Shown: positions 1 to 13,334, counted from the first letter of the stretch. The stretch: 64,000 nt of DNA from Candidatus Methylomirabilota bacterium (GCA_036001065.1 DASYUQ010000077.1:12299-76298); one strand, 5' to 3'. Translations and numbers: made by a program. Notes: generated from the letters alone by a model not told the origin.

Positions 1-1148
1 GAGCACTGCCAGCACAGGTGGCGCTGCGGGTAGTTCACGGCGCCGCAGTCGGCGCACTTCTGGCCGTAGAGCCGAAGGTTCTGCCGTTCCTCCCGCACCA
101 GCGTCGGGACGCTCGAGAACGAGCGGATGACCTCGGTGTCGACGTGGCGGCGGAATCGCAGGAACTTGCCGTAATGCCCGAGCGCCCGGCCGGCGGCGAG
201 CTGCCCGCCCACGGGCCGCGGGGGGCGGAAGCCAGCGATCGCATCCGTCGCCTCGAAGAGCAACGCCTCCGCCCCGTTGCCGTACGACACCACCAGGATC
301 TGATCGTGAGGCTTCGCCTCCTCCATGACGGAGGCCAGCTCCAGCAGGCAGGAGGCGGCACCCGTGTTGCCGGCCCGCCCGATGACGGGCTCCCCGGGCA
401 CCGCGGCCTCGGGAAACTTCAGCTGGCGGACCAGCGCCGCGTGGGTGCGGGCATCGGGGCCGTAGAGCACGAGCCTGGCGACGTCCTCCCGCTTCCGACC
501 CGTTTTCCGGAGGAGCCCGTCGATGGCCTCGGGGATGTGCTTGTCGAGCCCGTGAGCCTTGATGAACGTCAGATCGGGCAGTGACTGGACGTAGCGCTCG
601 CCATCGTTGCGCCAGAAATCGGTGAACTCGTGGCTGGCCGTGAATGCTCCCTCGAAGGAGGCGATGACGTCGGCGGTCCCGATCAGCGCCGCGCCGGCGC
701 CGTCGCCCACGAGCATCTCCAGCTCGCCGCCGGGCGCGACCGGCCGCATGTCCGCCGCCGCCACCAGCGCCTCGGCCGCCGAGCCCGCCCGCACCGTGTC
801 GAGCGCCAGACGGAGCGCGGTGGTGCCGCAGCGGAGCGATCCCCCGAGATCGGCAGTGAGCACGCCCGCCCCCAGGTCGACGACGCTGGCCAGAAGCGTG
901 GCGCTGGACTTCTCGACGTAGGGCGCGGAGGTCGAGGCGAAGAAGCAGGCGCCGATGCCGGAGACGGCGCGCGCGCCGATGGCGTTGAGGGCCGCCTCGC
1001 AGGCCATGGTAAGGGCGTCCTCGTCGTAGTTGGCCACGGCGCGCCCGCCGCCGCCCCCGCCCCACACCTGCGCGACCGTCTGGCCCGACAGCCGGTAGCG
1101 CGGCACGTAGCCCCCCACGCTCACGAGACCGATCTTCGGATCAGCCAT
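1..1148 (-). CDS. HMG-CoA synthase-family condensing enzyme fused to a C-terminal DUF35 Zn-ribbon/OB-fold domain (5' ATG at 1148, 3' end cut by window start)
   Basis: Minus-strand translation from ATG at 1148 gives MADPKIGLVSVGGYVPRYRLSG...ANYDEDALTMACEAALNAIG...ACFFASTSAPYVEKSSA...LRCGTTALRLA. This matches HMGCS hallmarks (ANxDEDS(I/L)TMA, FATES-like, C-G-(G/T)-T-A-L). The C-terminal part visible before the window edge (YGQKCADCGAVNYPQRHLCWQC) is a DUF35-type C4 Zn ribbon. The gene is not in the ORF track because it runs off the window. It sits 14 bp downstream of the CoA-transferase stop. Confidence 0.6.
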   Translation of the reverse strand, partial: MADPKIGLVSVGGYVPRYRLSGQTVAQVWGGGGGGRAVANYDEDALTMACEAALNAIGARAVSGIGACFFASTSAPYVEKSSATLLASVVDLGAGVLTADLGGSLRCGTTALRLALDTVRAGSAAEALVAAADMRPVAPGGELEMLVGDGAGAALIGTADVIASFEGAFTASHEFTDFWRNDGERYVQSLPDLTFIKAHGLDKHIPEAIDGLLRKTGRKREDVARLVLYGPDARTHAALVRQLKFPEAAVPGEPVIGRAGNTGAASCLLELASVMEEAKPHDQILVVSYGNGAEALLFEATDAIAGFRPPRPVGGQLAAGRALGHYGKFLRFRRHVDTEVIRSFSSVPTLVREERQNLRLYGQKCADCGAVNYPQRHLCWQC

Positions 1149-1162
1149 GGGTGATGTCTCCA

Positions 1163-3040
1163 CTATCCAAGGAAATACCGCCTCGGATCGAAGAGCCGGA
1201 TGAGCCGCAGCTCGTCCGGCGTCGGGGGATCGAAGCGCCGCAGGGCCGGGGCGACCTTCAGCTCCCAGCCGCACGCCTCCCGCGCAGCCCGGACGGCTTC
1301 CGCCTCGGGCGGCCCCGCCAGGACGCCCGTCAGGATCAGCTCGGAGCTCTCGTCGGGCTTCTCGTACACGCCCCGGTCCGACACGACGGTCGTGACGCGC
1401 GTGCCCGGCGCCGTGATGTACGGCGCCTTGTCGACGAAGCGCTCCCGGCTCTGGGCCAGCGTCACGACGACCTCCCGCGCCGACGAGGCGATGTCGTTGG
1501 CTCCGCCCGAGCCCGTGATGTACAGGGTCCCCGGCACGATGGTCGAGTTGATGTTGCCGTGCTTGTCGATCTGCCCCGCCGCCAGCGAGCCGAGGCAGCG
1601 GTTCTCGCTCCCGCCCATGAAGATGCCCATAACGTGGAAGATGTCGGTGAGCATCTTGGACGACGGGAAGTTGCGGAACGAGAAGACGAACGGCTCGGCC
1701 GGGCGCGGCAGATAGCCGACCATCCCCGTCTCGGCCATCAGCTCCACGTCGACGCCGGCGGCCTTCAGCTCGTAGGCGCTGAGCCAGGCGGCCAGGTTCG
1801 AGTTGCCCACGCCGGCCAGGAAGGCGCGATAGCCCCGCGCCCTCACCTTCTCGCCGAGCAGGCGCGCCGCGGCCACCACCATCATCTCCGCTGCGGTGAA
1901 GCCGCCGTCGGCGGGAATGGCGGGCGCGAGCATCTCCAGCTCCCAGACCCAGGCGTCGGTGTGGGCGCGGCCCTTGACCTCCATCAGCCGCTGGTAGCCC
2001 AGCCGGGCGACGTAGGCCCCCTGGTCCGGCACCTCCAGCATCCACTCCTTGATCCAGGCCTCCGCCGTCTCGCGCTTCCGGAAGGCGCGGCGCAGCGTGA
2101 GGATGAAGTCGAGGTCCTCCGCGTATCCCTCCAGCTCGGCGACGTTCATGCCGTACATCCCGGCGGGATGGGCCCCGAACGGCGCCTCCACCACGGCCGC
2201 GACGTACTGTCCCGGCAGTCGCACCAACGGGGCGTGGCGGCGGATGAACTCGGTCGAGACGACCTTCTCGACGCTGACGATGGCGCCCCCGCGGGCGGCC
2301 ATCGCCGCGTAGAAGTTCTCGTTGAGGGGCGCGGCGGCGAGGACGTTGCCGGCGCGGTCGGCGGCCCAGGCGTGAAACAGCGCCACATCCGGCTTGAGCG
2401 AGCGCACGAACCCGACCCTTCGAGCGCCGGCTCCGCCGGCACAACCCTCCGATGGGGAGGTTCGGAGGGGGTCGTGAGGCCCTCTCTGACTAGGGATCTC
2501 GGAGGGGGCCGTAACGTCCGCCCCCTCCGAAAAAAACGGGTCGGGGGCGGCGAGGAAATCGCCATCGCGCGCGTTGTCCTCCTCCATCGAGGAGCCGAGC
2601 AGCGAGCGCGTGGGCATGAAGGGCACGCCCAGCGCGCCCCCGATCAGCCTGAGCGGCATCGTCAGCATCGACCAGTTCTGGACGGCCACCTGGCCGCCGA
2701 GCACGGCGCGGCCGACCAGCGGCTGGGGCGTCGGATAAGGATAGCCCTCGCCGATGAAGGTCGTGACGAGGCGCTCGACGAGGCCGCCCACGACGAACGC
2801 CGTCCAGGGCGAGCCGAACCCGGTCATCGCCAGCGTCCAGCCCGGCCTCCGGCCCCACCACTGGCGGATCACCTCTCGCACCAGCGCGTTCGGGCGGCCG
2901 TGGGCGGCGCCCAGGTAGATGGTCTGGCGCGGCGCGATCAGGCGCCGCACCGCCTCCTCCAGGGTCGTCACCTTGTCCGGCCCTTCGGTGGGCGGCAGCG
3001 CGAGGCGTCGCCCGATCAGCTCCGCGTAGTCCGAGCGCAT
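1163..3040 (-). CDS. Family I CoA-transferase, fused alpha-like + beta-like subunits (GctAB/AtoDA-type), with an about 39-aa in-frame repeat-derived insertion
   Basis: 625-aa ORF. The C-terminal half carries the beta-subunit catalytic-glutamate motif (GGSENRCLGSLAAGQIDKHGNINSTIV). The N-terminal half resembles the alpha subunit. Residues about 168-207 (PFFSEGADVTAPSEIPSQRGPHDPLRTSPSEGCAGGAGARRVG) are encoded by repeat copy A. Confidence 0.65.
   Translation of the reverse strand: MRSDYAELIGRRLALPPTEGPDKVTTLEEAVRRLIAPRQTIYLGAAHGRPNALVREVIRQWWGRRPGWTLAMTGFGSPWTAFVVGGLVERLVTTFIGEGYPYPTPQPLVGRAVLGGQVAVQNWSMLTMPLRLIGGALGVPFMPTRSLLGSSMEEDNARDGDFLAAPDPFFSEGADVTAPSEIPSQRGPHDPLRTSPSEGCAGGAGARRVGFVRSLKPDVALFHAWAADRAGNVLAAAPLNENFYAAMAARGGAIVSVEKVVSTEFIRRHAPLVRLPGQYVAAVVEAPFGAHPAGMYGMNVAELEGYAEDLDFILTLRRAFRKRETAEAWIKEWMLEVPDQGAYVARLGYQRLMEVKGRAHTDAWVWELEMLAPAIPADGGFTAAEMMVVAAARLLGEKVRARGYRAFLAGVGNSNLAAWLSAYELKAAGVDVELMAETGMVGYLPRPAEPFVFSFRNFPSSKMLTDIFHVMGIFMGGSENRCLGSLAAGQIDKHGNINSTIVPGTLYITGSGGANDIASSAREVVVTLAQSRERFVDKAPYITAPGTRVTTVVSDRGVYEKPDESSELILTGVLAGPPEAEAVRAAREACGWELKVAPALRRFDPPTPDELRLIRLFDPRRYFLG
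2420..2537. repeat. GC-rich palindromic repeat element, copy A (forward orientation), inside the CoA-transferase CDS in-frame
   Basis: Sequence: ttcgagcgccggctccgccggc...gatggggaggttcggagggggtcgtgaggccctctctgactagggatctcggagggggccgtaacgtccgccccctccgaaaaaaa. It is near-identical to copy B (32414-32520) and shares 5' and 3' modules with copies C, D, E and F. Internal hairpins: GCCGGCtccGCCGGC and TTCGGAGGGGG...CCCCCTCCGAA. Confidence 0.65.
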
Positions 3041-3046
3041 CTTTCC

Positions 3047-3394
3047 CTAGCGTGGTGAGAAGATGCGGGCCTTGATCCGACCCGGCACCCAGCCGGCCAG
3101 CAGGTGGGCCGCCCGCGCCAGCCGCTCCAGCGACGCGGCGCTCCCCGGCCAGTACTTGAGCAGCAGGGCGCGGTCGACGTAGTTGAGGATCCCGTCGAGG
3201 ATGATCGCCGCCAGCAGGAGATCGTCGAGGTAGCCCAGGAACGGGATGAAGTCGGGGATCAGGTCGATGGGACTGGCCAGGTAGACCGCCGCGGCGGCCA
3301 GGGCGATCTTGGCCGGGCGCGGCAGTACCGGGTCGCCCACGAGCCGGGCGATCAGCCGTACGAGGTCGGGCAGCGCGCGCAGCAGCTCCTTCAC
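3047..3394 (-). CDS. DUF1232 (YkvA-like) small membrane protein
   Basis: 115 aa with the DUF1232 signature PIDLIPDFIPFLGYLDDLLL and hydrophobic segments. Its start ATG overlaps the upstream gene's stop (ATGA). Confidence 0.55.
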   Translation of the reverse strand: MKELLRALPDLVRLIARLVGDPVLPRPAKIALAAAAVYLASPIDLIPDFIPFLGYLDDLLLAAIILDGILNYVDRALLLKYWPGSAASLERLARAAHLLAGWVPGRIKARIFSPR

Positions 3395-5376
3395 TCCAGG
3401 CTCTCCGCCACCAGCTCGCTCACATCTTTGACTTGAAGTCGCTCCTCGGCCCCCTTGACCTTACGGCCCAGGTCGATCATCGCCAGGCAGAAGGGACAGG
3501 CGGTGCCCACCATGGTCGCCTCGGTCTCCAGGGCCTCCTCCACCCGGATGATGTTGACGCGCTTCCGGGACTTCACCTCCATCCACATGTGGCCCCCGCC
3601 CCCGCCGCAGCAGAGCCCGCGTTCGCGGTTGCGCGGCATCTCGATGACCCGGAGACCGGGAAGCGCGCGGGCCACGGCCCGGGGCGCCTCCATGATGCCG
3701 TTGTAGCGTCCGAGATAGCAGGAGTCGTGGAAGGCCAGCGTCGCGTCGAGGGCCTTTTTCGGCTTGATCCGGCCGGCGGCGAGCAGCTCGTTGATGACCA
3801 CCGAGTGGTGGACCACCTCGTAGGTGCCGCCGAACTGGGGGAACTCGTTCTTGATGGTGTTGAAGCAGTGGGGGCAGTGGGTGAGGACCTTCCGGAAGCG
3901 GTACCGGCCCAGCGCCTCGACGTTCTCCTGCTGCACGGTCTGGTACAGGTACTCCTCGCCCAGCCGGCGCGCGACCTCGCCGTGGCAGCGCTCCTCCGGC
4001 ATCACCGCGAAGGACACGCCGGCCGCTTTGAGGATCCTCACCACGGACCGCGCGATCGACTGGTTGCGCTTGTCGTAGGAGGCGGAGCAGCCGACCCAGT
4101 AGAGGTACTCGACCTCTTTGCCCGGCTCCATGAGCGGCACGTCGAGCCCGTGCGCCCAGGCCAGCCGCTCGCTGGCCGGCAGCCCCCAGGGGTTGCCCGC
4201 CCGCTGGATGTTCTGCAGCGATTGCGGCGCCGTCGACGGGAGAGCGCCCTCCGACAGCGCCAGATACCGGCGGAGGTCGATGATGGTGTCGACGATGTCG
4301 ATGAAGGCCGGGCACTCCTGCACGCAGGCCATGCAGGTCGTGCACGCCCACAGCTCCTCGGCCTTGATGAGTTGGCCGTGGATCGGTCCGGGCAGCTCGC
4401 CGTGCAGGTGCCGCTTGAGCTTCACGATGATCTGCTTGGGGGATAGCGCCGTGCCCGCCATGTAGGCGGGGCAGACCGCCTGACAGCGCCCGCACTCCAC
4501 GCACGCGTCGAAGTCTAGCCGTCGCTTCCACGAGAACTCCTCGAGCTTCGAGATGCCGAACGACTCGGCCTCCTCGATGTTCTCGATCTTGGGGATCTCG
4601 CCGCGGGGGCCGAGCTTCGAGAAGAAGATGTTCAGCGGCGTGGTCAGGAGGTGGACGAAGTAGGAGTAGGGGATGACGGCGACGAAGGCCAGGGAGATCG
4701 CCGCGTGGAACAGCCAGGTCCCCAGATGGAGCGCACGCAACGCGCCCTCCGACATCCCGGCCGCCAGCATCGTCCGCCCCAGCGCCCAGCCCACCGGCGA
4801 CCACGGCGCCCACGCCGGCTCGACGACGGCCAGGCGGCAGGCCTCCATGATGAAGCCCGTGAGGTTGATCACGAAGAGCAGGGCCAGCACGCCGGCGAAG
4901 CGCGCCGTGGGATCGAGGCGATCCGGGCGCGCGACGAAGCGCCGCCCCACCGCCATGCCGAGCCCGATGACGAAGAAGAGCCCGAAGAGGTCGAGCACCG
5001 TCTCGTAGAAGAGGTAGAACGGCCCCTGGAGCAGCTTCACGTCGAAGAGCGGCAGCGTGATGTCCCAGTCGATGGTGGCCAGCACGGTGCCCATGAAAAG
5101 GGCGAGGAAGCCCCAGAATATGATCGCGTGCATGACCCCCGGATAGGCCTGGGAGAGTGTGCGGGCCTGGCCGAGCGCGTGCACCAGCACGAGCTTGACG
5201 CGTTCGGGAACCCGGTCGAATCGGTCCTGGGGGCGGCCGGCGCGCCACAGCCGGACGCGCTGCCACATACCGTAGACGAAGACGGCGACGGCCGCGAGGG
5301 CGCCGGCGTAGAGCGCGATCTGAGCCCAGGCCGGAACATTCCAGAAGGTGTCGCGGAACGGAATCTGTCCGGTCAT
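3391..5376 (-). CDS. Membrane-anchored iron-sulfur oxidoreductase: NarI/DsrM-like polytopic N-terminal domain + two 4Fe-4S ferredoxin motifs + two CCG (HdrD/DsrK/GlpC-like) cysteine-rich domains
   Basis: True start is ATG at 5376 (MTGQIPFRDTFWN...), overlapping the meaB stop as ATGA. The track ORF 3391..5925 carries a spurious 183-aa Arg/Gly-rich N-terminal extension. About 5-6 predicted TM helices are followed by CVECGRCQAVCP and CTTCMACVQECP, then the CCG motifs WVGCSASYD and LCCGGGGGHMW...CPFC. The architecture matches DsrMK/HmeCD-type and the membrane FeS oxidoreductases (DUF224) that accompany EtfAB in syntrophs. Confidence 0.65.
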   Translation of the reverse strand: MTGQIPFRDTFWNVPAWAQIALYAGALAAVAVFVYGMWQRVRLWRAGRPQDRFDRVPERVKLVLVHALGQARTLSQAYPGVMHAIIFWGFLALFMGTVLATIDWDITLPLFDVKLLQGPFYLFYETVLDLFGLFFVIGLGMAVGRRFVARPDRLDPTARFAGVLALLFVINLTGFIMEACRLAVVEPAWAPWSPVGWALGRTMLAAGMSEGALRALHLGTWLFHAAISLAFVAVIPYSYFVHLLTTPLNIFFSKLGPRGEIPKIENIEEAESFGISKLEEFSWKRRLDFDACVECGRCQAVCPAYMAGTALSPKQIIVKLKRHLHGELPGPIHGQLIKAEELWACTTCMACVQECPAFIDIVDTIIDLRRYLALSEGALPSTAPQSLQNIQRAGNPWGLPASERLAWAHGLDVPLMEPGKEVEYLYWVGCSASYDKRNQSIARSVVRILKAAGVSFAVMPEERCHGEVARRLGEEYLYQTVQQENVEALGRYRFRKVLTHCPHCFNTIKNEFPQFGGTYEVVHHSVVINELLAAGRIKPKKALDATLAFHDSCYLGRYNGIMEAPRAVARALPGLRVIEMPRNRERGLCCGGGGGHMWMEVKSRKRVNIIRVEEALETEATMVGTACPFCLAMIDLGRKVKGAEERLQVKDVSELVAESLE

Positions 5377-6368
5377 GAGTGTCCCAACGATAGCACGGCG
5401 AGAACGACCTCCGCGGCGGCGTACGGGTCGAGCTGCCCGTCGGCGACCCGATCGAACGTCTGGGCCAGGTCGCCCGAGCGCAGCATCCGCTCCACGCTGT
5501 CCCTGAACTCCTCCACCAGGAGACTCTTGAACTCGTCGCGCCGCCGGGCCCGGCGCCGTTCGGCCAGCGCGCCCGCTCCCTCCAGAGCTGCGCGGTGGCC
5601 GACGACCGTGTCGAGCAGCTCGGCCATCCCGCCGTTGTTCTGGGCCTCCGTCGCCAGCACGGGGATCTCCCAGTCGACGTCGCGCGGCGCGGTGGGGCTG
5701 GTGGAGGCCAGGTGGGCGGCGAACTTCAGCTCCGCCATCAGGGCGGGGGCGCCGGTGCGGTCGGCCTTGTTGACGACGAAGACGTCGGCCGCCTCCATGA
5801 GGCCCGCCTTCATCGTCTGGATGGCGTCGCCCGACTCCGGCACCAGGATGACCACCGTCGTGTCGGCGAGCTTCATGATGTCGAGCTCGGTCTGGCCCAC
5901 GCCCACGGTCTCGATGAGGATCCACGGAAACCCGAACGCGGCCAGGAGCTTGATGACGTCGCCGGTGGCGCGGGCCAGCCCGCCGAAGGCGCCGCGCGTC
6001 GCCATGCTCCGGATGAAGACGCCGGGGTCGAGCGCGTGGGCCTGCATGCGGATGCGATCGCCCAGCACCGCGCCCCCCGTGAACGGACTCGACGGATCCA
6101 CGGCGACGACGCCGACGGTCTGCTCGCGCGCGCGGAGCAGCGCGGTCAGCCGGTCCACGACTGTCGATTTACCGGCGCCGGGTGGCCCCGTCACGCCCAC
6201 GACGTAGGCGCCCTGCGCCCGCGGATGGATCGCGCGCATGATGGCGGGCACCGCCTCCCTGCGGTTCTCGACGTGGGTGATGAGACGCGCCAGCGCCAGC
6301 CGGTCGCCGGCCAGCATGCGCTCGACGAGCGCGTCGATTTTCTGCGGGCGGGTCTTCGGATCAGGCAT
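5373..6368 (-). CDS. meaB: MeaB/ArgK-family G-protein (B12-dependent acyl-CoA mutase metallochaperone)
   Basis: 331 aa with P-loop GVTGPPGAGKST, VETVGVGQ and NKAD. This is typical MeaB. It is the first gene of a 5-gene minus-strand operon. Confidence 0.8.
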   Translation of the reverse strand: MPDPKTRPQKIDALVERMLAGDRLALARLITHVENRREAVPAIMRAIHPRAQGAYVVGVTGPPGAGKSTVVDRLTALLRAREQTVGVVAVDPSSPFTGGAVLGDRIRMQAHALDPGVFIRSMATRGAFGGLARATGDVIKLLAAFGFPWILIETVGVGQTELDIMKLADTTVVILVPESGDAIQTMKAGLMEAADVFVVNKADRTGAPALMAELKFAAHLASTSPTAPRDVDWEIPVLATEAQNNGGMAELLDTVVGHRAALEGAGALAERRRARRRDEFKSLLVEEFRDSVERMLRSGDLAQTFDRVADGQLDPYAAAEVVLAVLSLGHS

Positions 6369-6384
6369 CGGCCGACGGGTCCCC

Positions 6385-6410
6385 GGAATTGTAGCACTCT
6401 GCTAGTATGG
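6385..6410. promoter_or_regulatory. AT-rich divergent promoter island: extended -10 (TGcTACAAT) on the minus strand for meaB, and TAGTAT -10-like on the plus strand for the small membrane ORF
   Basis: The plus strand reads ggaattgtagcactctgctagtatgg. This is the only AT-rich patch in a GC-rich region. Minus-strand gTGcTACAAT lies about 20 nt upstream of the meaB ATG (6368). No convincing -35 is present. Confidence 0.3.
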
Positions 6411-6417
6411 CCGGCTG

Positions 6418-6789
6418 ATGCGGGGCCTCCCCATGCTCGTCGCGCTCGCCGCCGCCGAACAGCCCCTCACGCTGCAGCGGGTATGGCTCGACCGCCTGGC
6501 GATCATCATTCCGGCGACCATGGCGACGCGGTGGCTGCTCCTCGCCGACCTCGCCTGCCTGATCGCGCTGGGGCTGGGGATGCGCCGGCCGCTGCTCGGC
6601 GTGGTCCTCACCCTTGGCGGAGGATTCCTTGTCCTCAACGGCCTCGGCATGGCGCTCACGGATTTCTACCTGGGACTCGCCCTCTTTCACTTCGTCGTCG
6701 GCGTCACCGTGGTCCTGTTCGCGCGCCGCGCGCGCTGGCTGGGCGCGGCGGCGCTGGGACTGGCGCTCGTCCTCGGCGCCCTCACCTGA
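6418..6789 (+). CDS. Small hydrophobic membrane protein (hypothetical)
   Basis: 123 aa with about 4 predicted TM helices (LVALAAA..., LLLADLACLIALGL, VVLTLGGGFLVLNGLGMAL, LALFHFVVGVTVVLF). Plus-strand codon usage is GC3-rich. It is convergent with the cytochrome gene, and an alternative start is at 6433. Confidence 0.4.
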   Translation: MRGLPMLVALAAAEQPLTLQRVWLDRLAIIIPATMATRWLLLADLACLIALGLGMRRPLLGVVLTLGGGFLVLNGLGMALTDFYLGLALFHFVVGVTVVLFARRARWLGAAALGLALVLGALT

Positions 6790-6797
6790 TGACGGCC

Positions 6798-7355
6798 TTA
6801 CATCTCCTTGTGGCACTCCAGGCAGATGGGGACGACGAGCGTCCTGGAGATAAACCGGTTGGTGGCGTCGCTGTCCGTCGTGTGCGTCGTGTGACAGCGC
6901 ACGCAAGCCACCCTCACCGTGTCGTGCTCGCGGATGGCATGGTAGGAGGTGCCTCCCCGGCCTTCGGTCGCCTCCTCGGCCTCGAACTCCGCACCGGGGT
7001 CGACGGCCCGCGCCGGGCTCCCCGCCGCCTCGCCGTCGGCGCGCGACACGCGCAGAATCGGCGTGTGGCACTGGCGGCAGTCGGCGTCGCGCAGCGGCAG
7101 CCGCATGTGCGTCGGCTCCTGATAGGCGCCGGCCAGGAACTTCAGCGTGTCGAACCCCGCCACGGCCCAGACCGTCAAGCGCATCCCGGAATCGGCGCCG
7201 CCGTGACAGGCGATGCACCCGACCGCCGCGTCCTGGCGGTGATGCTGCCCGGCCAGATCGCCAGGCATGGCCGCGGTCAGACCCCCGAACTTCTCATCGT
7301 GCAGGTGGCAGGAGACGCAGAAGCGGTTGTCGCGCTCCTTGGCGGCGAGCGCCAC
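6798..7355 (-). CDS. NapC/NirT/NrfH-family membrane-anchored multiheme cytochrome c (5 CxxCH); likely N-terminal extension to about 7436
   Basis: The ORF from GTG 7355 contains CVSCH, CIACH, CRQCH, CVRCH and CLECH. In-frame upstream codons (no stop back to 7445) encode a TM anchor, IARSFGRSLALWAAGGAGALLLGSLFLVALAAKERDNRFCVSCH. This is the NrfH/NapC arrangement (TM helix, then first heme). The only start-like codon there is ATC at 7436, 8 nt after a GAGAGGAGGA Shine-Dalgarno. Confidence 0.6.
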   Translation of the reverse strand: MALAAKERDNRFCVSCHLHDEKFGGLTAAMPGDLAGQHHRQDAAVGCIACHGGADSGMRLTVWAVAGFDTLKFLAGAYQEPTHMRLPLRDADCRQCHTPILRVSRADGEAAGSPARAVDPGAEFEAEEATEGRGGTSYHAIREHDTVRVACVRCHTTHTTDSDATNRFISRTLVVPICLECHKEM

Positions 7356-7461
7356 CAGGAAGAGCGAACCGAGAAGCAGGGCTCCCGCCCCGCCCGCCGC
7401 CCAGAGTGCGAGAGACCGTCCGAACGACCGGGCGATGGCGGGAGTCCTCCTCTCGCGGGTG

Positions 7462-8268
7462 CTAGCGAACGGTCACCATCACCGGCTTGGCGAACATAAT
7501 GTGCCCCGACGGACCACCGCCACCACCTCGCGGCAGCACCGCGCCGGTCGGCGTCGTCACGGTGCCCACGGACGAGGCCTTCTCGGAGCCGTAGTGGAAG
7601 GCGGCGGTGATCGAGTACGTACCGGGCTCCTGCGGGGCCTTCACGGCCCACACGACCTTGCCCTCGGCCGGCTTCCGGGCGGCCAGATCAGTCTTCTGAT
7701 CGAAGATGACGACGCTATTGAGGTTCTTCTTGAGTCCGGCCGCACGGCTATCCACCCACTTGGTCTGCTCCTGGCCATCGCCGCCCCACGCCTTTGGAGG
7801 ACCGACGATCAGCCAACCGTCGCCCTGGACCGGTCGCGCCTGGAAGCGGAGGTCGGTGTCGACCAGGAACACCCCGACGGCCCCGTGGCCCCCCTTGACC
7901 GTCACCGTGATCTGGGTCTCCTGACCCGGTCGGAGGCTGGTCGGGGCGCTGAGGTTCACCGAGGCGAGCTCGTCCATCAGCTTGACGTCGGCCAGCAGCT
8001 TCTGGCGGTCGGCGGGCTGCATCTGCTGATAGGGGCCCGCGCCATCCTCGATGGCCTTGTAGTGCTTGTTCTCCTTGACCTGGCTGTTGGCGAACGCCTC
8101 CGGCTCGTTCCGTAACTGGTCCTTGGAGACGGACGAGTGGCAGGCGGCACACGTCGGGGCGAGATCGGTAACGTTGCGCAGCGGCCCGCCATTATAGGCG
8201 GCAGCCGGCGGCACGCCGAAGGGAAGCAGCATTGCTGCGAGGCCGAGAACGCTGGCAAATCGTTTCAT
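7462..8268 (-). CDS. Secreted monoheme c-type cytochrome-domain protein
   Basis: True start ATG at 8268 (MKRFASVLGLAAMLLPFGVPPAAAYNGG...) with a GGGGGA RBS. It has a signal peptide, a single CAACH heme motif about 20 aa after the cleavage site, and an about 220-aa C-terminal domain. The upstream 149 aa of track ORF 7462..8715 is an Arg/Ser-rich artefact. Confidence 0.55.
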   Translation of the reverse strand: MKRFASVLGLAAMLLPFGVPPAAAYNGGPLRNVTDLAPTCAACHSSVSKDQLRNEPEAFANSQVKENKHYKAIEDGAGPYQQMQPADRQKLLADVKLMDELASVNLSAPTSLRPGQETQITVTVKGGHGAVGVFLVDTDLRFQARPVQGDGWLIVGPPKAWGGDGQEQTKWVDSRAAGLKKNLNSVVIFDQKTDLAARKPAEGKVVWAVKAPQEPGTYSITAAFHYGSEKASSVGTVTTPTGAVLPRGGGGGPSGHIMFAKPVMVTVR

Positions 8269-11196: not shown

Positions 11197-13017
11197 TCAG
11201 GCGGCTTCCCACAGCCCTTCGGCGACGCCGGCGCTCTTGTAGGCGGCTCGGATGCGATCGAGGTTCTGCGTGAAGAGGAGCCCGATCTTCGCGAACGGCT
11301 CGAAGACAGGACCCTGGCCCTCGATCAGCGGGAAGCTGACATTGGGGAGCTTGCCCCACTGGGCGCGCAGCGCGATGTTCACGGTCGCCAGGCGCGCGTA
11401 GAACTCCTCGCGCTCCTTCGCCGCGCGCTTGACGATCGGCGTGATCAGGCAGTCGATGGTCTGGCGCGCCCGCGCCGCCGCGCCCTCGACGGCCGCCTCC
11501 GCCAGCGGCACCACCGTCACGCCCAGCTCGCCCAGGAACCGCTGCAGGAGCCGACCGACCGATTCCTGGAGCAGCACCTCGGGCAGCCCGACCGTCTTCA
11601 GCTCGCGGTGGCCGATCTGCGCAGCCTCCGCGTACAGCTGGTCGCGCAGCCACTGCACGTAGGCGCGGTTCTCCTCGTCCTTCCACCACTGCTTGATCAT
11701 CTTCTTGCCCCAGTAACGGATGGCCACGTAGTAGAGGTCCCGCTTCCAGAGCTTCTTGGCGATCCCCCGCCAGGAGTAGAACTTGGCCATCGCATCGATC
11801 GCCCCCGTCTGGAGCTCGTAGGGCGACATCCGCCGCGGCTGGTGGACCGTGTGGTGGCCGTCGTAAAAGGACCAGTTCCGGTTGATGACGTACTTGTCGC
11901 CCTTGGCGTAGAGGGTGTCCCAGTCGGGCGAGCCCGGGATCGGCGTGAGGATCATGAACTGCACGGAGTCGATGTCGTGCTTCAGCGCGAAGTCGGCGGT
12001 CGCGTCGATCGTCTCGAGGTCGTCCTCGTCCGAGCCGACCACGAACATGCCGTGGATCCGGATTTGGTGGGCGTGGAAGCGCTCGATCGACCGCTCGATC
12101 TTGGCCAGATCCTGCTTCTTCTGGAAGAGCTTGAGCGTGCGGGGATTGATGGACTCGAACCCCACGTACACATTGAAGCAGTTCGAGTCGCGCATGAGCT
12201 CGAGAAGCTCGGGATCGTCCACCGTCTCGGTGCGCACCTGGGCGCCCCACTGGGGCGTGAGCCCGCGCTCGATCATCCCCCGCAAGAGCTCCTTCACGCG
12301 CTTCTTGTTGGCGGTGAAGATGTCGTCGGCGAAGAAGGTGTAGAGGTTGCCCTTGTGCAGCGTCAGCTCCTCCAGCACCCGCGCGACCGAGTGGGTGCGG
12401 AAGGCGTGACCGTACATCCCCGGCACCGAGCAGAAGGTGCAGGAGAAGGGGCAGCCGCGGGAGGTGGCGATGGAGATGACCCCGCCCGGCTTCCAGCCGG
12501 TGATGAGCTGGTAATCGGGGATCGGGTTCACGTCCAGGTTGGGGATCTTCGGGCGCTCGGGGTTGTGCACGGTCCGGCCGTCCGCCTGGTACGAGAGATT
12601 CTGGATCTTCTCGAACCCCTCGCCCCGCTGGATGGCGTCCACCAGCTCCTGGAAGGCGGCCTCCCCCTCGCCCCGGACGACGAAGTCTCCGTGGGCGAGC
12701 CCTTCGTCGGGCATGAAGCTCGTGTGGGTGCCGCCCAGCACGACGATCCCGCCCGCCTGCCTCACCTGGTCGGCGAGGCGATACGACTGGGGGGCCGTGG
12801 AGGTGATGGCGGAGATGCCCACCAGATCGGCCGCGAGCACCTCCGCCATGTCCACGGGTTGGATGTCCTCGATGTAGACGCGGACGTCGTATCCCTTGCT
12901 CCGCATGATCGTGCCCAAGAGCACGGAGCCGAGCCGCGGAATACACACCCGGGTGTACACGTGGAGGTGCGTGGACTTCGGCTCGACAAACACGAGCTTC
13001 TTGAGCGCTCGCTTCAT
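11197..13017 (-). CDS. Cobalamin (B12)-binding domain radical SAM enzyme (class B) with about 180-aa C-terminal extension
   Basis: Start ATG 13017 (MKRALKKLVFVEP...) with RBS GGGGAG. N-terminal B12-binding fold (DLVGISAITS...IVVLGGTHTSF) and CPFSCTFCSVPG (Cx3Cx2C), then a Trp-rich C-terminal extension reminiscent of DUF4070. Confidence 0.75.
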   Translation of the reverse strand: MKRALKKLVFVEPKSTHLHVYTRVCIPRLGSVLLGTIMRSKGYDVRVYIEDIQPVDMAEVLAADLVGISAITSTAPQSYRLADQVRQAGGIVVLGGTHTSFMPDEGLAHGDFVVRGEGEAAFQELVDAIQRGEGFEKIQNLSYQADGRTVHNPERPKIPNLDVNPIPDYQLITGWKPGGVISIATSRGCPFSCTFCSVPGMYGHAFRTHSVARVLEELTLHKGNLYTFFADDIFTANKKRVKELLRGMIERGLTPQWGAQVRTETVDDPELLELMRDSNCFNVYVGFESINPRTLKLFQKKQDLAKIERSIERFHAHQIRIHGMFVVGSDEDDLETIDATADFALKHDIDSVQFMILTPIPGSPDWDTLYAKGDKYVINRNWSFYDGHHTVHQPRRMSPYELQTGAIDAMAKFYSWRGIAKKLWKRDLYYVAIRYWGKKMIKQWWKDEENRAYVQWLRDQLYAEAAQIGHRELKTVGLPEVLLQESVGRLLQRFLGELGVTVVPLAEAAVEGAAARARQTIDCLITPIVKRAAKEREEFYARLATVNIALRAQWGKLPNVSFPLIEGQGPVFEPFAKIGLLFTQNLDRIRAAYKSAGVAEGLWEAA

Positions 13018-13334
13018 GAGTGGTTTCTCCCCGGTTGAAGAGGCCAGAGAATTTCGCAGATGCGCCAACGCTATCACCCGCCTCCGCGGCTTGTCAACGT
13101 ACGCCTGCCCCCTTCTCCCCTAAATATGGTGTTCACGACCCGTCCGGAACCCCCGTATGTTGGATTTGGGGCTTGACAGGATTTCCGGGCCGGCTCTAGC
13201 ATGCCGGTGACGCGCGTCATGCCGCAAGGGAGGTGAGCCGCGCCCTCGAGGCGACCGGCCCTCTCGGCCTTGCGTTCCGGCAGGGCCGCACCCTCTGATG
13301 ATACTGAGTGGGGCGACCCCCCTCAGACCCTGAG

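Follow-up and report, generated by a model that had tools for sequence, protein, structure and literature searches.

Natural fusions of a domain related to 3-hydroxy-3-methylglutaryl-CoA (HMG-CoA) synthase (HMGS) with a DUF35 module are known from P. fluorescens, in which a fusion lacking the E-C-H-N catalytic tetrad acts together with ACAT to split acetoacetyl-CoA by thiolysis and produces no HMG-CoA; mutating the tetrad abolishes HMGS activity (Nat Commun 2026, PMC12960953). The membrane protein EtfD/EMO has been established by genetic, biochemical and structural proof as the carrier of electrons from electron transfer flavoprotein (ETF) to menaquinone (PMC8593149; PMC13083937; bioRxiv 10.64898/2026.08.18.745454). 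Relatives of these two proteins are encoded together in the first 6,368 nucleotides of a 64,000-nucleotide stretch of DNA (hereafter the window) from a Candidatus Methylomirabilota bacterium (GCA_036001065.1 DASYUQ010000077.1:12299-76298), in a five-gene unit composed of meaB, an etfD homologue, a DUF1232 gene, a fused CoA-transferase gene and an HMGS-like/DUF35 fusion gene. Homologues of all five proteins were labelled Candidatus Rokubacteria or Methylomirabilota, and the nearest genome, MNEF01000116, shared 93-98% protein identity. The reading favoured here, which we consider rather likely, is that the unit is a Rokubacteria-specific, co-transcribed set of partner and accessory proteins for acyl-CoA catabolism whose catalytic partners are encoded elsewhere; it is probably a lineage-specific arrangement of known families rather than a new pathway. 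Loci used for comparison are given by number (L001 and so on).

The fusion had been taken, in a sequence-only reading of the window, for an HMG-CoA-synthase-type condensing enzyme. In the alignment, however, the tetrad E82/C114/H238/N270 of M. thermolithotrophicus HMGS corresponded to T73/L105/Y229/N261 in the window fusion; three of the four residues are lost and the Asn is retained. This column assignment was validated by PhlA, in which the same columns read C/G/Q/D, exactly the substitutions reported in the literature. Because three of the four tetrad residues are lost, Claisen condensation by the window fusion is unsupported. The tetrad Glu and Cys were absent from all 28 Rokubacterial fusion loci, from all of the ~52 distant loci fetched, and from each of the 136 full-length family representatives found in a scan of 1.84 billion proteins. 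At 50% identity the family falls into at least 524 clusters (E no higher than 1e-30). The Zn-ribbon cysteines Cys365/368/379/382 were kept in 135-136 of these 136 representatives. Neither mark of a catalytic archaeal-type HMG-CoA synthase, the tetrad or an equivalog-level score, was found in the fusion, which scored 217.8 bits with PRK04262 and 155.5 bits with TIGR00748 in NCBIfam, below the respective cut-offs of 244 and 353.35. The earlier DUF35 call was upheld, PF12172 and PF01796 being present in the same chain in the full-length fusion and in all homologues; zf-ChsH2 scored 29 bits, with the Zn ribbon inside the window and the OB fold past the window start. On its sequence, the window fusion would belong to the inactive HMGS-DUF35 fusions that are partners of an SCP2-type thiolase in thiolysis, not condensation.

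Two further possibilities for the active site were rejected. The nucleophile of FabH occupies the same position as that of HMGS; a FabH-like KAS III identity was dismissed on the Leu at this position and on scores of 59 and 47 bits with FabH models having cut-offs of ~250-290. Cys107, two residues after the nucleophile position, was dismissed as a substitute nucleophile because most distant orthologues, and half of those from Rokubacteria, have Ala or Ser there. AlphaFold2, run on the fusion with an alignment of 12 sequences, yielded a model of low quality (mean predicted local distance difference test, pLDDT, 59).

Like the P. fluorescens protein, the window fusion carries a tetrad-less HMGS-like domain, a Zn ribbon and an OB fold in a single chain. 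It differs in the retention of the tetrad Asn, in having no adjacent thiolase gene, either in the window or in Rokubacteria generally, and in its position after DUF1232 or the CoA-transferase in a unit headed by meaB and etfD. Both halves of the fusion had their best structural relatives in the PhlACB/MucABC systems and the archaeal thiolase/HMGCS/DUF35 complex (5M3K, 6ESQ), with PDB matches of 127.6 bits to PhlA (5M3K_A), 120.4 bits to archaeal HMGCS (6ESQ_I) and 59.8 bits to DUF35 (6ESQ_E). PhlA, like the window fusion, is without the tetrad. In contrast to the fused chain in the window, PhlACB/MucABC and the archaeal complex consist of three separate, co-encoded subunits, and the archaeal HMGS has catalytic activity. 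Phl and Muc, moreover, belong to secondary metabolism and have thiolases without HDxF, whereas the window showed no polyketide synthase or nonribosomal peptide synthetase context.

Rokubacterial orthologues of more than 70% identity saturated the homologue searches made with the fusion, with the thiolase and with the CoA-transferase, and contexts in other phyla were taken from a scan of genome contigs. Relatives of the fusion outside Rokubacteria were 38-45% identical and came from Dehalococcoidia, Desulfobacterota, Binatia, Syntrophia and others. An SCP2-type thiolase (HDxF) directly adjoined the fusion in 44 of 52 such loci, and the other frequent neighbours were a family-III CoA-transferase, a short-chain dehydrogenase/reductase (SDR), enoyl-CoA hydratase, acyl-CoA dehydrogenase and acyl-CoA ligase. 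A B12 mutase was found immediately 5' of the fusion in four loci, in one of them with MeaB, and in L036 a split homologue of the window CoA-transferase stood directly 5' of the fusion and thiolase, an arrangement that follows ato-like logic (CoA-transferase plus thiolase). Two fusion relatives, P0497 (911 aa) and P0495 (722 aa), carried extra C-terminal SDR and/or SCP2 sterol-carrier domains, an extension that recalls peroxisomal MFE-2 and SCPx. The adjacent thiolase, enoyl-CoA hydratase, acyl-CoA dehydrogenase, mutase and CoA-transferase genes, together with the SDR/SCP2 fusions, would place the family in β-oxidation-type catabolism. Rokubacteria possess an SCP2-type thiolase that is very strongly conserved, carries Cys, HDxF and GHx motifs and has no DUF35 neighbour; this orphan thiolase is a plausible in-trans partner of the fusion. 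No SCP2-type thiolase gene adjoined the fusion in the window, and none lay within 10 kb of it in the Rokubacterial loci except in L011, where one was 4.6 kb away.

The four mutase-containing loci (L042, L044, L053 and L063) were from Thermodesulfobacteriota/Desulfobacterales metagenome-assembled genomes and encoded, in order, the large subunit of a B12 mutase, the HMGS-like/DUF35 fusion and the SCP2 thiolase. L042 and L063 had an upstream open reading frame (ORF) of ~130 aa, possibly the small subunit, and at the other end continued into enoyl-CoA hydratase and putative acyl-CoA dehydrogenase genes, and in L044 MeaB was encoded between mutase and fusion. This Desulfobacterota cluster looks like a dedicated rearrangement-then-β-oxidation pathway for branched acyl-CoA.

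The Fe-S membrane protein encoded by the second gene had been regarded as part of a non-textbook system; it proved to be a close architectural homologue of the characterised EtfD/EMO, the ETF:menaquinone oxidoreductase of β-oxidation. In addition to CCG (104 bits) and 4Fe-4S dicluster domain calls, it matched M. smegmatis EtfD (PDB 9OJN_A) over residues 42-660 (E=7.8e-107, 361 bits). Hydropathy analysis predicted five transmembrane segments, and the NarI-like five-helix N-terminal membrane domain carried the haem-b histidines H82 and H242, equivalent to His78 and His241 of M. smegmatis. Cubane [4Fe-4S] motifs of the form CX2CX2CX3C were found at 292 and 345 (CVECGRCQAVCP and CTTCMACVQECP). For the linear [3Fe-4S] D1 site, the cysteines aligned to M. 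smegmatis 503/538/581/584 were conserved, as were the remaining CCG-domain cysteines, which are read here as the D2 (noncubane-cluster) ligands. The protein thus shares with the EtfD/EMO set (M. smegmatis 9OJN, M. tuberculosis Rv0338c and S. aciditrophicus EMO, and also B. subtilis FadF and P. aeruginosa DgcB) the three-domain architecture, the proximal haem His pair and the full set of Cys ligands, among them those for the distal D1 cluster. By its motifs, we identify it as a putative ETF:menaquinone oxidoreductase homologue of the EtfD/EMO type, probably with one haem, as in M. smegmatis. In contrast to mycobacterial EtfD it is without the long disordered C-terminal tail (661 aa versus 1042), and it differs from known EtfDs in not being encoded beside etfAB and in being translationally coupled to meaB, which is unreported for them. 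Plasmid homologues of ~35% identity were located beside etfBA, one in a β-oxidation cluster and one in a dimethylglycine-type cluster. A tblastn search with two EtfA/EtfB pairs gave no match in the window or in the Rokubacterial loci.

Two EtfD subtypes with 37-44% mutual identity occupied the same slot between meaB and DUF1232, one represented by the window and the other by L004, L018, L021-L023 and L027. The proteins flanking the variant slot were 56-79% identical, which suggests in-place replacement or fast divergence.

The meaB product was an equivalog-level match to the MeaB/MMAA/E. coli ArgK (YgfD) family, with 295 bits to Pfam MeaB and 338 bits to TIGR00750 (cut-off 240.75); its scores against M. 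extorquens MeaB (2QM7) and M. tuberculosis Rv1496 were 184 and 195 bits, respectively. The P-loop GPPGAGKST from residue 61, the NKxD motif (NKAD at 200) and the switch III D/Q/K triad were conserved; D181/Q184/K187 of the latter aligned with MeaB D182/Q185/K188, the triad through which GTP hydrolysis is coupled to delivery of the cofactor. The protein keeps every motif of a B12-mutase chaperone, and nothing in its sequence suggests a changed function. In contrast to described MeaB/ArgK systems, neither the operon nor the 64-kb window contained a mutase gene and relatives had none within 10 kb, and no MM_CoA_mutase homologue that might be the cognate enzyme was found in the window or in Rokubacterial flanks. 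The E. coli sbm-ygfDGH operon also encodes a CoA-transferase, as does the window unit. A plasmid search with MeaB, judged from the match list only, gave no hint that MeaB and EtfD adjoin each other beyond the phylum.

The CoA-transferase matched Pfam CoA_trans (93.8 bits) in two stretches corresponding to the alpha and beta halves. Its best PDB match was the glutaconate CoA-transferase subunit GctA (1POI_A, 66.9 bits), followed by SCOT (38 bits) and by GctB, IpdA and AibA (~37 bits each), and Glu437 in the motif AETG aligned with the glutamate of SCOT SENG. The enzyme therefore resembles GctAB/SCOT/AtoDA in its family-I fold, in the presence of both halves and in the catalytic Glu, and differs from them in being a single fused chain of a divergent subfamily found mainly in Rokubacteria (525 matches). 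By these likenesses it would be a glutaconate-CoA-transferase-like family-I enzyme with transferase chemistry. Residues ~155-210 contain a low-complexity insert of ~30 residues (Pro, Ser, Gly, Ala), and the chain is 625 aa long compared with ~593-597 aa in most orthologues. The gene was precisely missing between DUF1232 and the fusion in L007 (a 93%-identical relative), L008, L028, L030 and L031. A family-III CoA-transferase was encoded 5' of meaB in several Rokubacteria, in some of which the family-I enzyme was absent. The DUF1232 protein scored 52.4 bits with Pfam (gathering score 23), had a hydrophobic stretch at about residues 28-77, and was detected with tblastn in 13 of the 17 Rokubacterial clusters; no functional literature on DUF1232 was found.

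The five co-oriented, nearly gap-free genes of the sequence-only reading are real. A plot of G+C by codon position (GC3 frame plot) identified the region 1-6368 as minus-strand coding in a window of ~70% G+C, and this plot and independent gene calls on identical metagenome contigs both supported the five genes, four complete in the window and one truncated, all on the minus strand (Table 1). All five domain calls were likewise correct by Pfam and NCBIfam profile searches. The spacing of 14 bp or less was also confirmed, while the ATGA overlaps proposed with it held in part: as read directly from the sequence, the junctions in gene order are an ATGA overlap of the etfD homologue start with the meaB stop, a GTGA overlap of the DUF1232 start with the etfD stop, a 6-nt gap and a 14-nt gap. 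An ORF at 3391-5925 (844 aa) was rejected as the true Fe-S gene; near 5300-5400 the GC3 plot changes frame, and the independent calls gave 661 aa. Co-orientation and tight spacing are typical of this genome and nothing special to the five-gene unit, because the minus strand carries 49 of the 53 window genes, the spacing is 14 bp or less at 27 of 46 same-strand junctions, and there are five runs of 3-4 tight junctions.

The operon had been expected to continue beyond position 1, where thiolase, mutase or ETF genes might lie. Instead, the full-length fusion, as seen in L001 and L002, has 471 aa; its gene stops ~270 bp past position 1, and the next gene on the identical metagenome contigs that extend there is a convergent BON-domain gene, so that no thiolase, mutase or etfAB follows. 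A short frameshifting deletion in the fusion gene of L002 (~2724-2778) resulted in separate calls of 365 and 101 aa, an assembly error or a strain variant. At the other end, meaB probably heads the transcription unit, as had been proposed, because a divergent gene and the extended -10-like motif TGCTACAAT precede it. This motif lies ~20 nt 5' of the meaB ATG, inside the 49-bp gap to the divergent gene, and resembling motifs were present 5' of meaB in two relatives (TGCTAGAAT in L012 and TGATAAGAT in L003). A sigma-70 consensus scan of positions 1-7600 requiring both hexamers gave no usable promoter, a terminator consensus scan of 1-7600 and of L002 past the fusion stop was equally unproductive, and a search of the whole window with Rfam at the gathering threshold gave no match, so no B12 riboswitch. 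The first 16 nt of meaB (ATGCCTGATCCGAAGA, MPDPK) and of the fusion gene (ATGGCTGATCCGAAGA, MADPK) were identical at 15 of 16 positions (window 6350-6368 and 1130-1148, minus strand); this similarity occurred only in the window lineage and L007 and not in remoter relatives, and is probably coincidence.

Table 1. Features of the five-gene unit and its surroundings, in window coordinates.
Feature	Position	Strand	Remarks
HMGS-like/DUF35 fusion	1-1148	-	5' 382 codons in window; last gene of unit
Fused alpha+beta family-I CoA-transferase, glutaconate-CoA-transferase-like (putative)	1163-3040	-	625 aa; optional cluster member
DUF1232 (YkvA-like) small membrane protein	3047-3394	-	115 aa; GTG start
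EtfD/EMO-type membrane ETF:menaquinone oxidoreductase homologue (putative)	3391-5376	-	661 aa
meaB, G3E-family GTPase chaperone of adenosylcobalamin-dependent acyl-CoA mutases	5373-6368	-	331 aa; first gene of unit (probable)
Extended -10-like motif TGCTACAAT	6388-6396	-	Candidate promoter, read from sequence
Divergent ORF, strongly hydrophobic, ~4 transmembrane segments	6418-6789	+	123 aa; 49 bp from meaB start
Pentahaem c-type cytochrome, NrfB/c7-like	6798-7355	-	Five CXXCH; just upstream of operon
Secreted protein	7462-8268	-	268 aa; one CAACH; just upstream of operon
B12-binding radical-SAM protein	11197-13077	-	626 aa; 5 kb upstream
Core-gene block	13404-40660	-	Single-strand block

Beyond the unit, the divergent ORF was kept at the same position in L001, L004 and L007 and had no match in Pfam or NCBIfam. 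The position of the pentahaem cytochrome and the secreted protein was occupied by different cytochromes c in other Rokubacteria (Cytochrom_C and Cytochrom_C_2 in L003). The radical-SAM gene was syntenic across Rokubacteria, and with meaB makes two cobalamin-related genes within 8 kb. The core-gene block contains nrdR, glyA, a 6-phosphogluconolactonase-like gene, thiI, a mobA-like gene, tsaC, purD and a gene for a TPR protein, and further purH, purN, purM, purF, purL, purQ, purC, purB and genes for an M16 peptidase, pnp, ribF and a DHH phosphoesterase; this annotation of core genes covers the window up to ~41 kb.

Family membership, motif status and gene order are shown here, and the component proteins are securely identified; co-transcription, the partners in trans and a common physiological role are inferred. 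If the unit is a set of partner proteins, its substrate scope would be fatty-acid and branched-chain-acid breakdown. The MeaB GTPase would gate adenosylcobalamin loading of a methylmalonyl-CoA-type mutase, which would convert propionyl-CoA-derived methylmalonyl-CoA to succinyl-CoA. Acyl-CoA dehydrogenases would load ETF, and the EtfD/EMO-type protein would take electrons from reduced ETF and hand them on to menaquinone by way of its non-cubane and cubane Fe-S clusters and its haem b. DUF1232 would be the small membrane protein of the unit, and the Gct-like CoA-transferase, as an optional member, might activate a free acid, 3-oxo or dicarboxylic, with an acyl-CoA as the CoA donor. The HMGS-like/DUF35 fusion would be a non-enzymatic scaffold that binds an SCP2-type thiolase and enables thiolytic cleavage of 3-oxoacyl-CoA, as in the P. 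fluorescens complex. The broad theme of the sequence-only reading, acyl-CoA metabolism linked to the quinone pool, holds.

The synteny predicted for relatives was found within Rokubacteria, where meaB and etfD were present 5' of the fusion and in the same orientation in 17 of the 18 loci with enough upstream sequence; beyond the phylum the prediction failed. Several observations, indeed, weigh against a functionally selected partner set. Unrelated upstream housekeeping genes (radical SAM, PRT, tsaB and rimI) were equally syntenic, and c-type cytochrome genes were syntenic as well, so conservation inside the phylum may reflect inertia rather than selection. Some relatives had unrelated insertions inside the cluster (an ABC transporter, pyruvate carboxylase, a cyclase and a PASTA-like protein), and the absence of the CoA-transferase from five loci, including the closest relative, weakens the case for selection of the cluster. 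No such cluster was found with the fusion outside the phylum. No gene for ETF, acyl-CoA dehydrogenase, thiolase or mutase was found in the 64-kb window, and none was found within 10 kb of the fusion, as far as contigs extend, in 26 of 27 Rokubacterial loci (the exception being L011), so that we infer every partnership. The CoA-transferase fold family, finally, includes the non-transferases AibAB and IpdAB.

The main rival to the partner-protein set is that the gene order is mostly phylogenetic inertia, in which case the genes are maybe co-transcribed but share no single pathway beyond CoA-ester metabolism. The strand bias and tight junctions of the window at large, the equally conserved order of tsaB, rimI, PRT and radical-SAM genes, the insertions, the variable presence of the CoA-transferase among close relatives, the different context of the fusion in L013 and the lack of such a cluster outside the phylum are all consistent with inertia. 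Against it, start and stop codons overlap at two junctions, and the slot between meaB and DUF1232 is filled in other Rokubacteria by a divergent EtfD (41% identity) with all cluster cysteines. A CoA-transferase of one family or another, including the family-III enzyme upstream of meaB, recurs in the cluster, all four annotated functions touch acyl-CoA catabolism, and mutase and MeaB recur beside the fusion in Desulfobacterota. On this evidence inertia was judged unlikely, while still deserving serious consideration. A different view is prompted by the pairs mutase and MeaB, EtfAB and EtfD, and thiolase and HMGS-like/DUF35 fusion, which would be split in Rokubacteria, with the helpers and DUF1232 gathered in one coupled unit. 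Such a unit might form a physical membrane hub of β-oxidation, in which EtfD and DUF1232 anchor the HMGS-like/DUF35 scaffold and thiolase, or might reflect re-recruitment of MeaB to a non-mutase client such as EtfD. The translational coupling of meaB to etfD and of etfD to DUF1232, the adjacency of DUF1232 and fusion where the CoA-transferase is absent, and the separation of all three helpers of known function from their usual partners would agree with this arrangement; MeaB, however, retains the mutase-signalling switch III triad and DUF1232 is missing from some clusters. Both the split-pair arrangement and its hub or re-recruitment forms are quite improbable.

Less probable again is a reading of the Gct-like protein as an AibAB-like 3-methylglutaconyl-CoA decarboxylase or an IpdAB-like ring/retro-Claisen hydrolase, which would assign the unit to an HMG/3-methylglutaconyl (leucine/isovalerate) branch or a cyclic-substrate branch. 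The scores of AibA (5MZW, 37 bits) and IpdA (6CO6 and 6COJ, ~37 bits) are about equal to that of SCOT, and the aib operon of M. xanthus reportedly pairs a Gct-like enzyme with HMGS, which was counted in favour. The best match, however, is to a genuine glutaconate CoA-transferase, the catalytic Glu motif is kept, the HMGS-like partner is inactive, and the gene is dispensable in close relatives, which makes this a highly improbable assignment. The model of the sequence-only reading, in which mutase rearrangement, CoA transfer and Claisen condensation were coupled to quinone reduction or oxidation, is largely refuted and scarcely tenable. Its domain families were rightly called and the PRK04262 score of the fusion is close to the archaeal HMGS equivalog cut-off. 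Nevertheless, Thr, Leu and Tyr stand in place of Glu, Cys and His, with Glu and Cys never present among the 136 representatives; mutation of the tetrad abolishes HMGS activity, and the natural tetrad-less fusion makes no HMG-CoA (PMC12960953); and the window contains no mutase, the operon ending just past its start.

For the biology of these bacteria, the present analysis places the membrane CCG protein of an abundant soil lineage in the EtfD/EMO class, which links β-oxidation to menaquinone. Were the helper-only operon truly a physical hub, it would bear on the membrane organisation of β-oxidation. For the fusion family, the labels HMG-CoA synthase and hydroxymethylglutaryl-CoA synthase, borne by such fusions in Rokubacteria and in many metagenome-assembled genomes of anaerobes, do not denote synthases, and these annotations are not to be taken as evidence of a mevalonate or HMG-CoA route.

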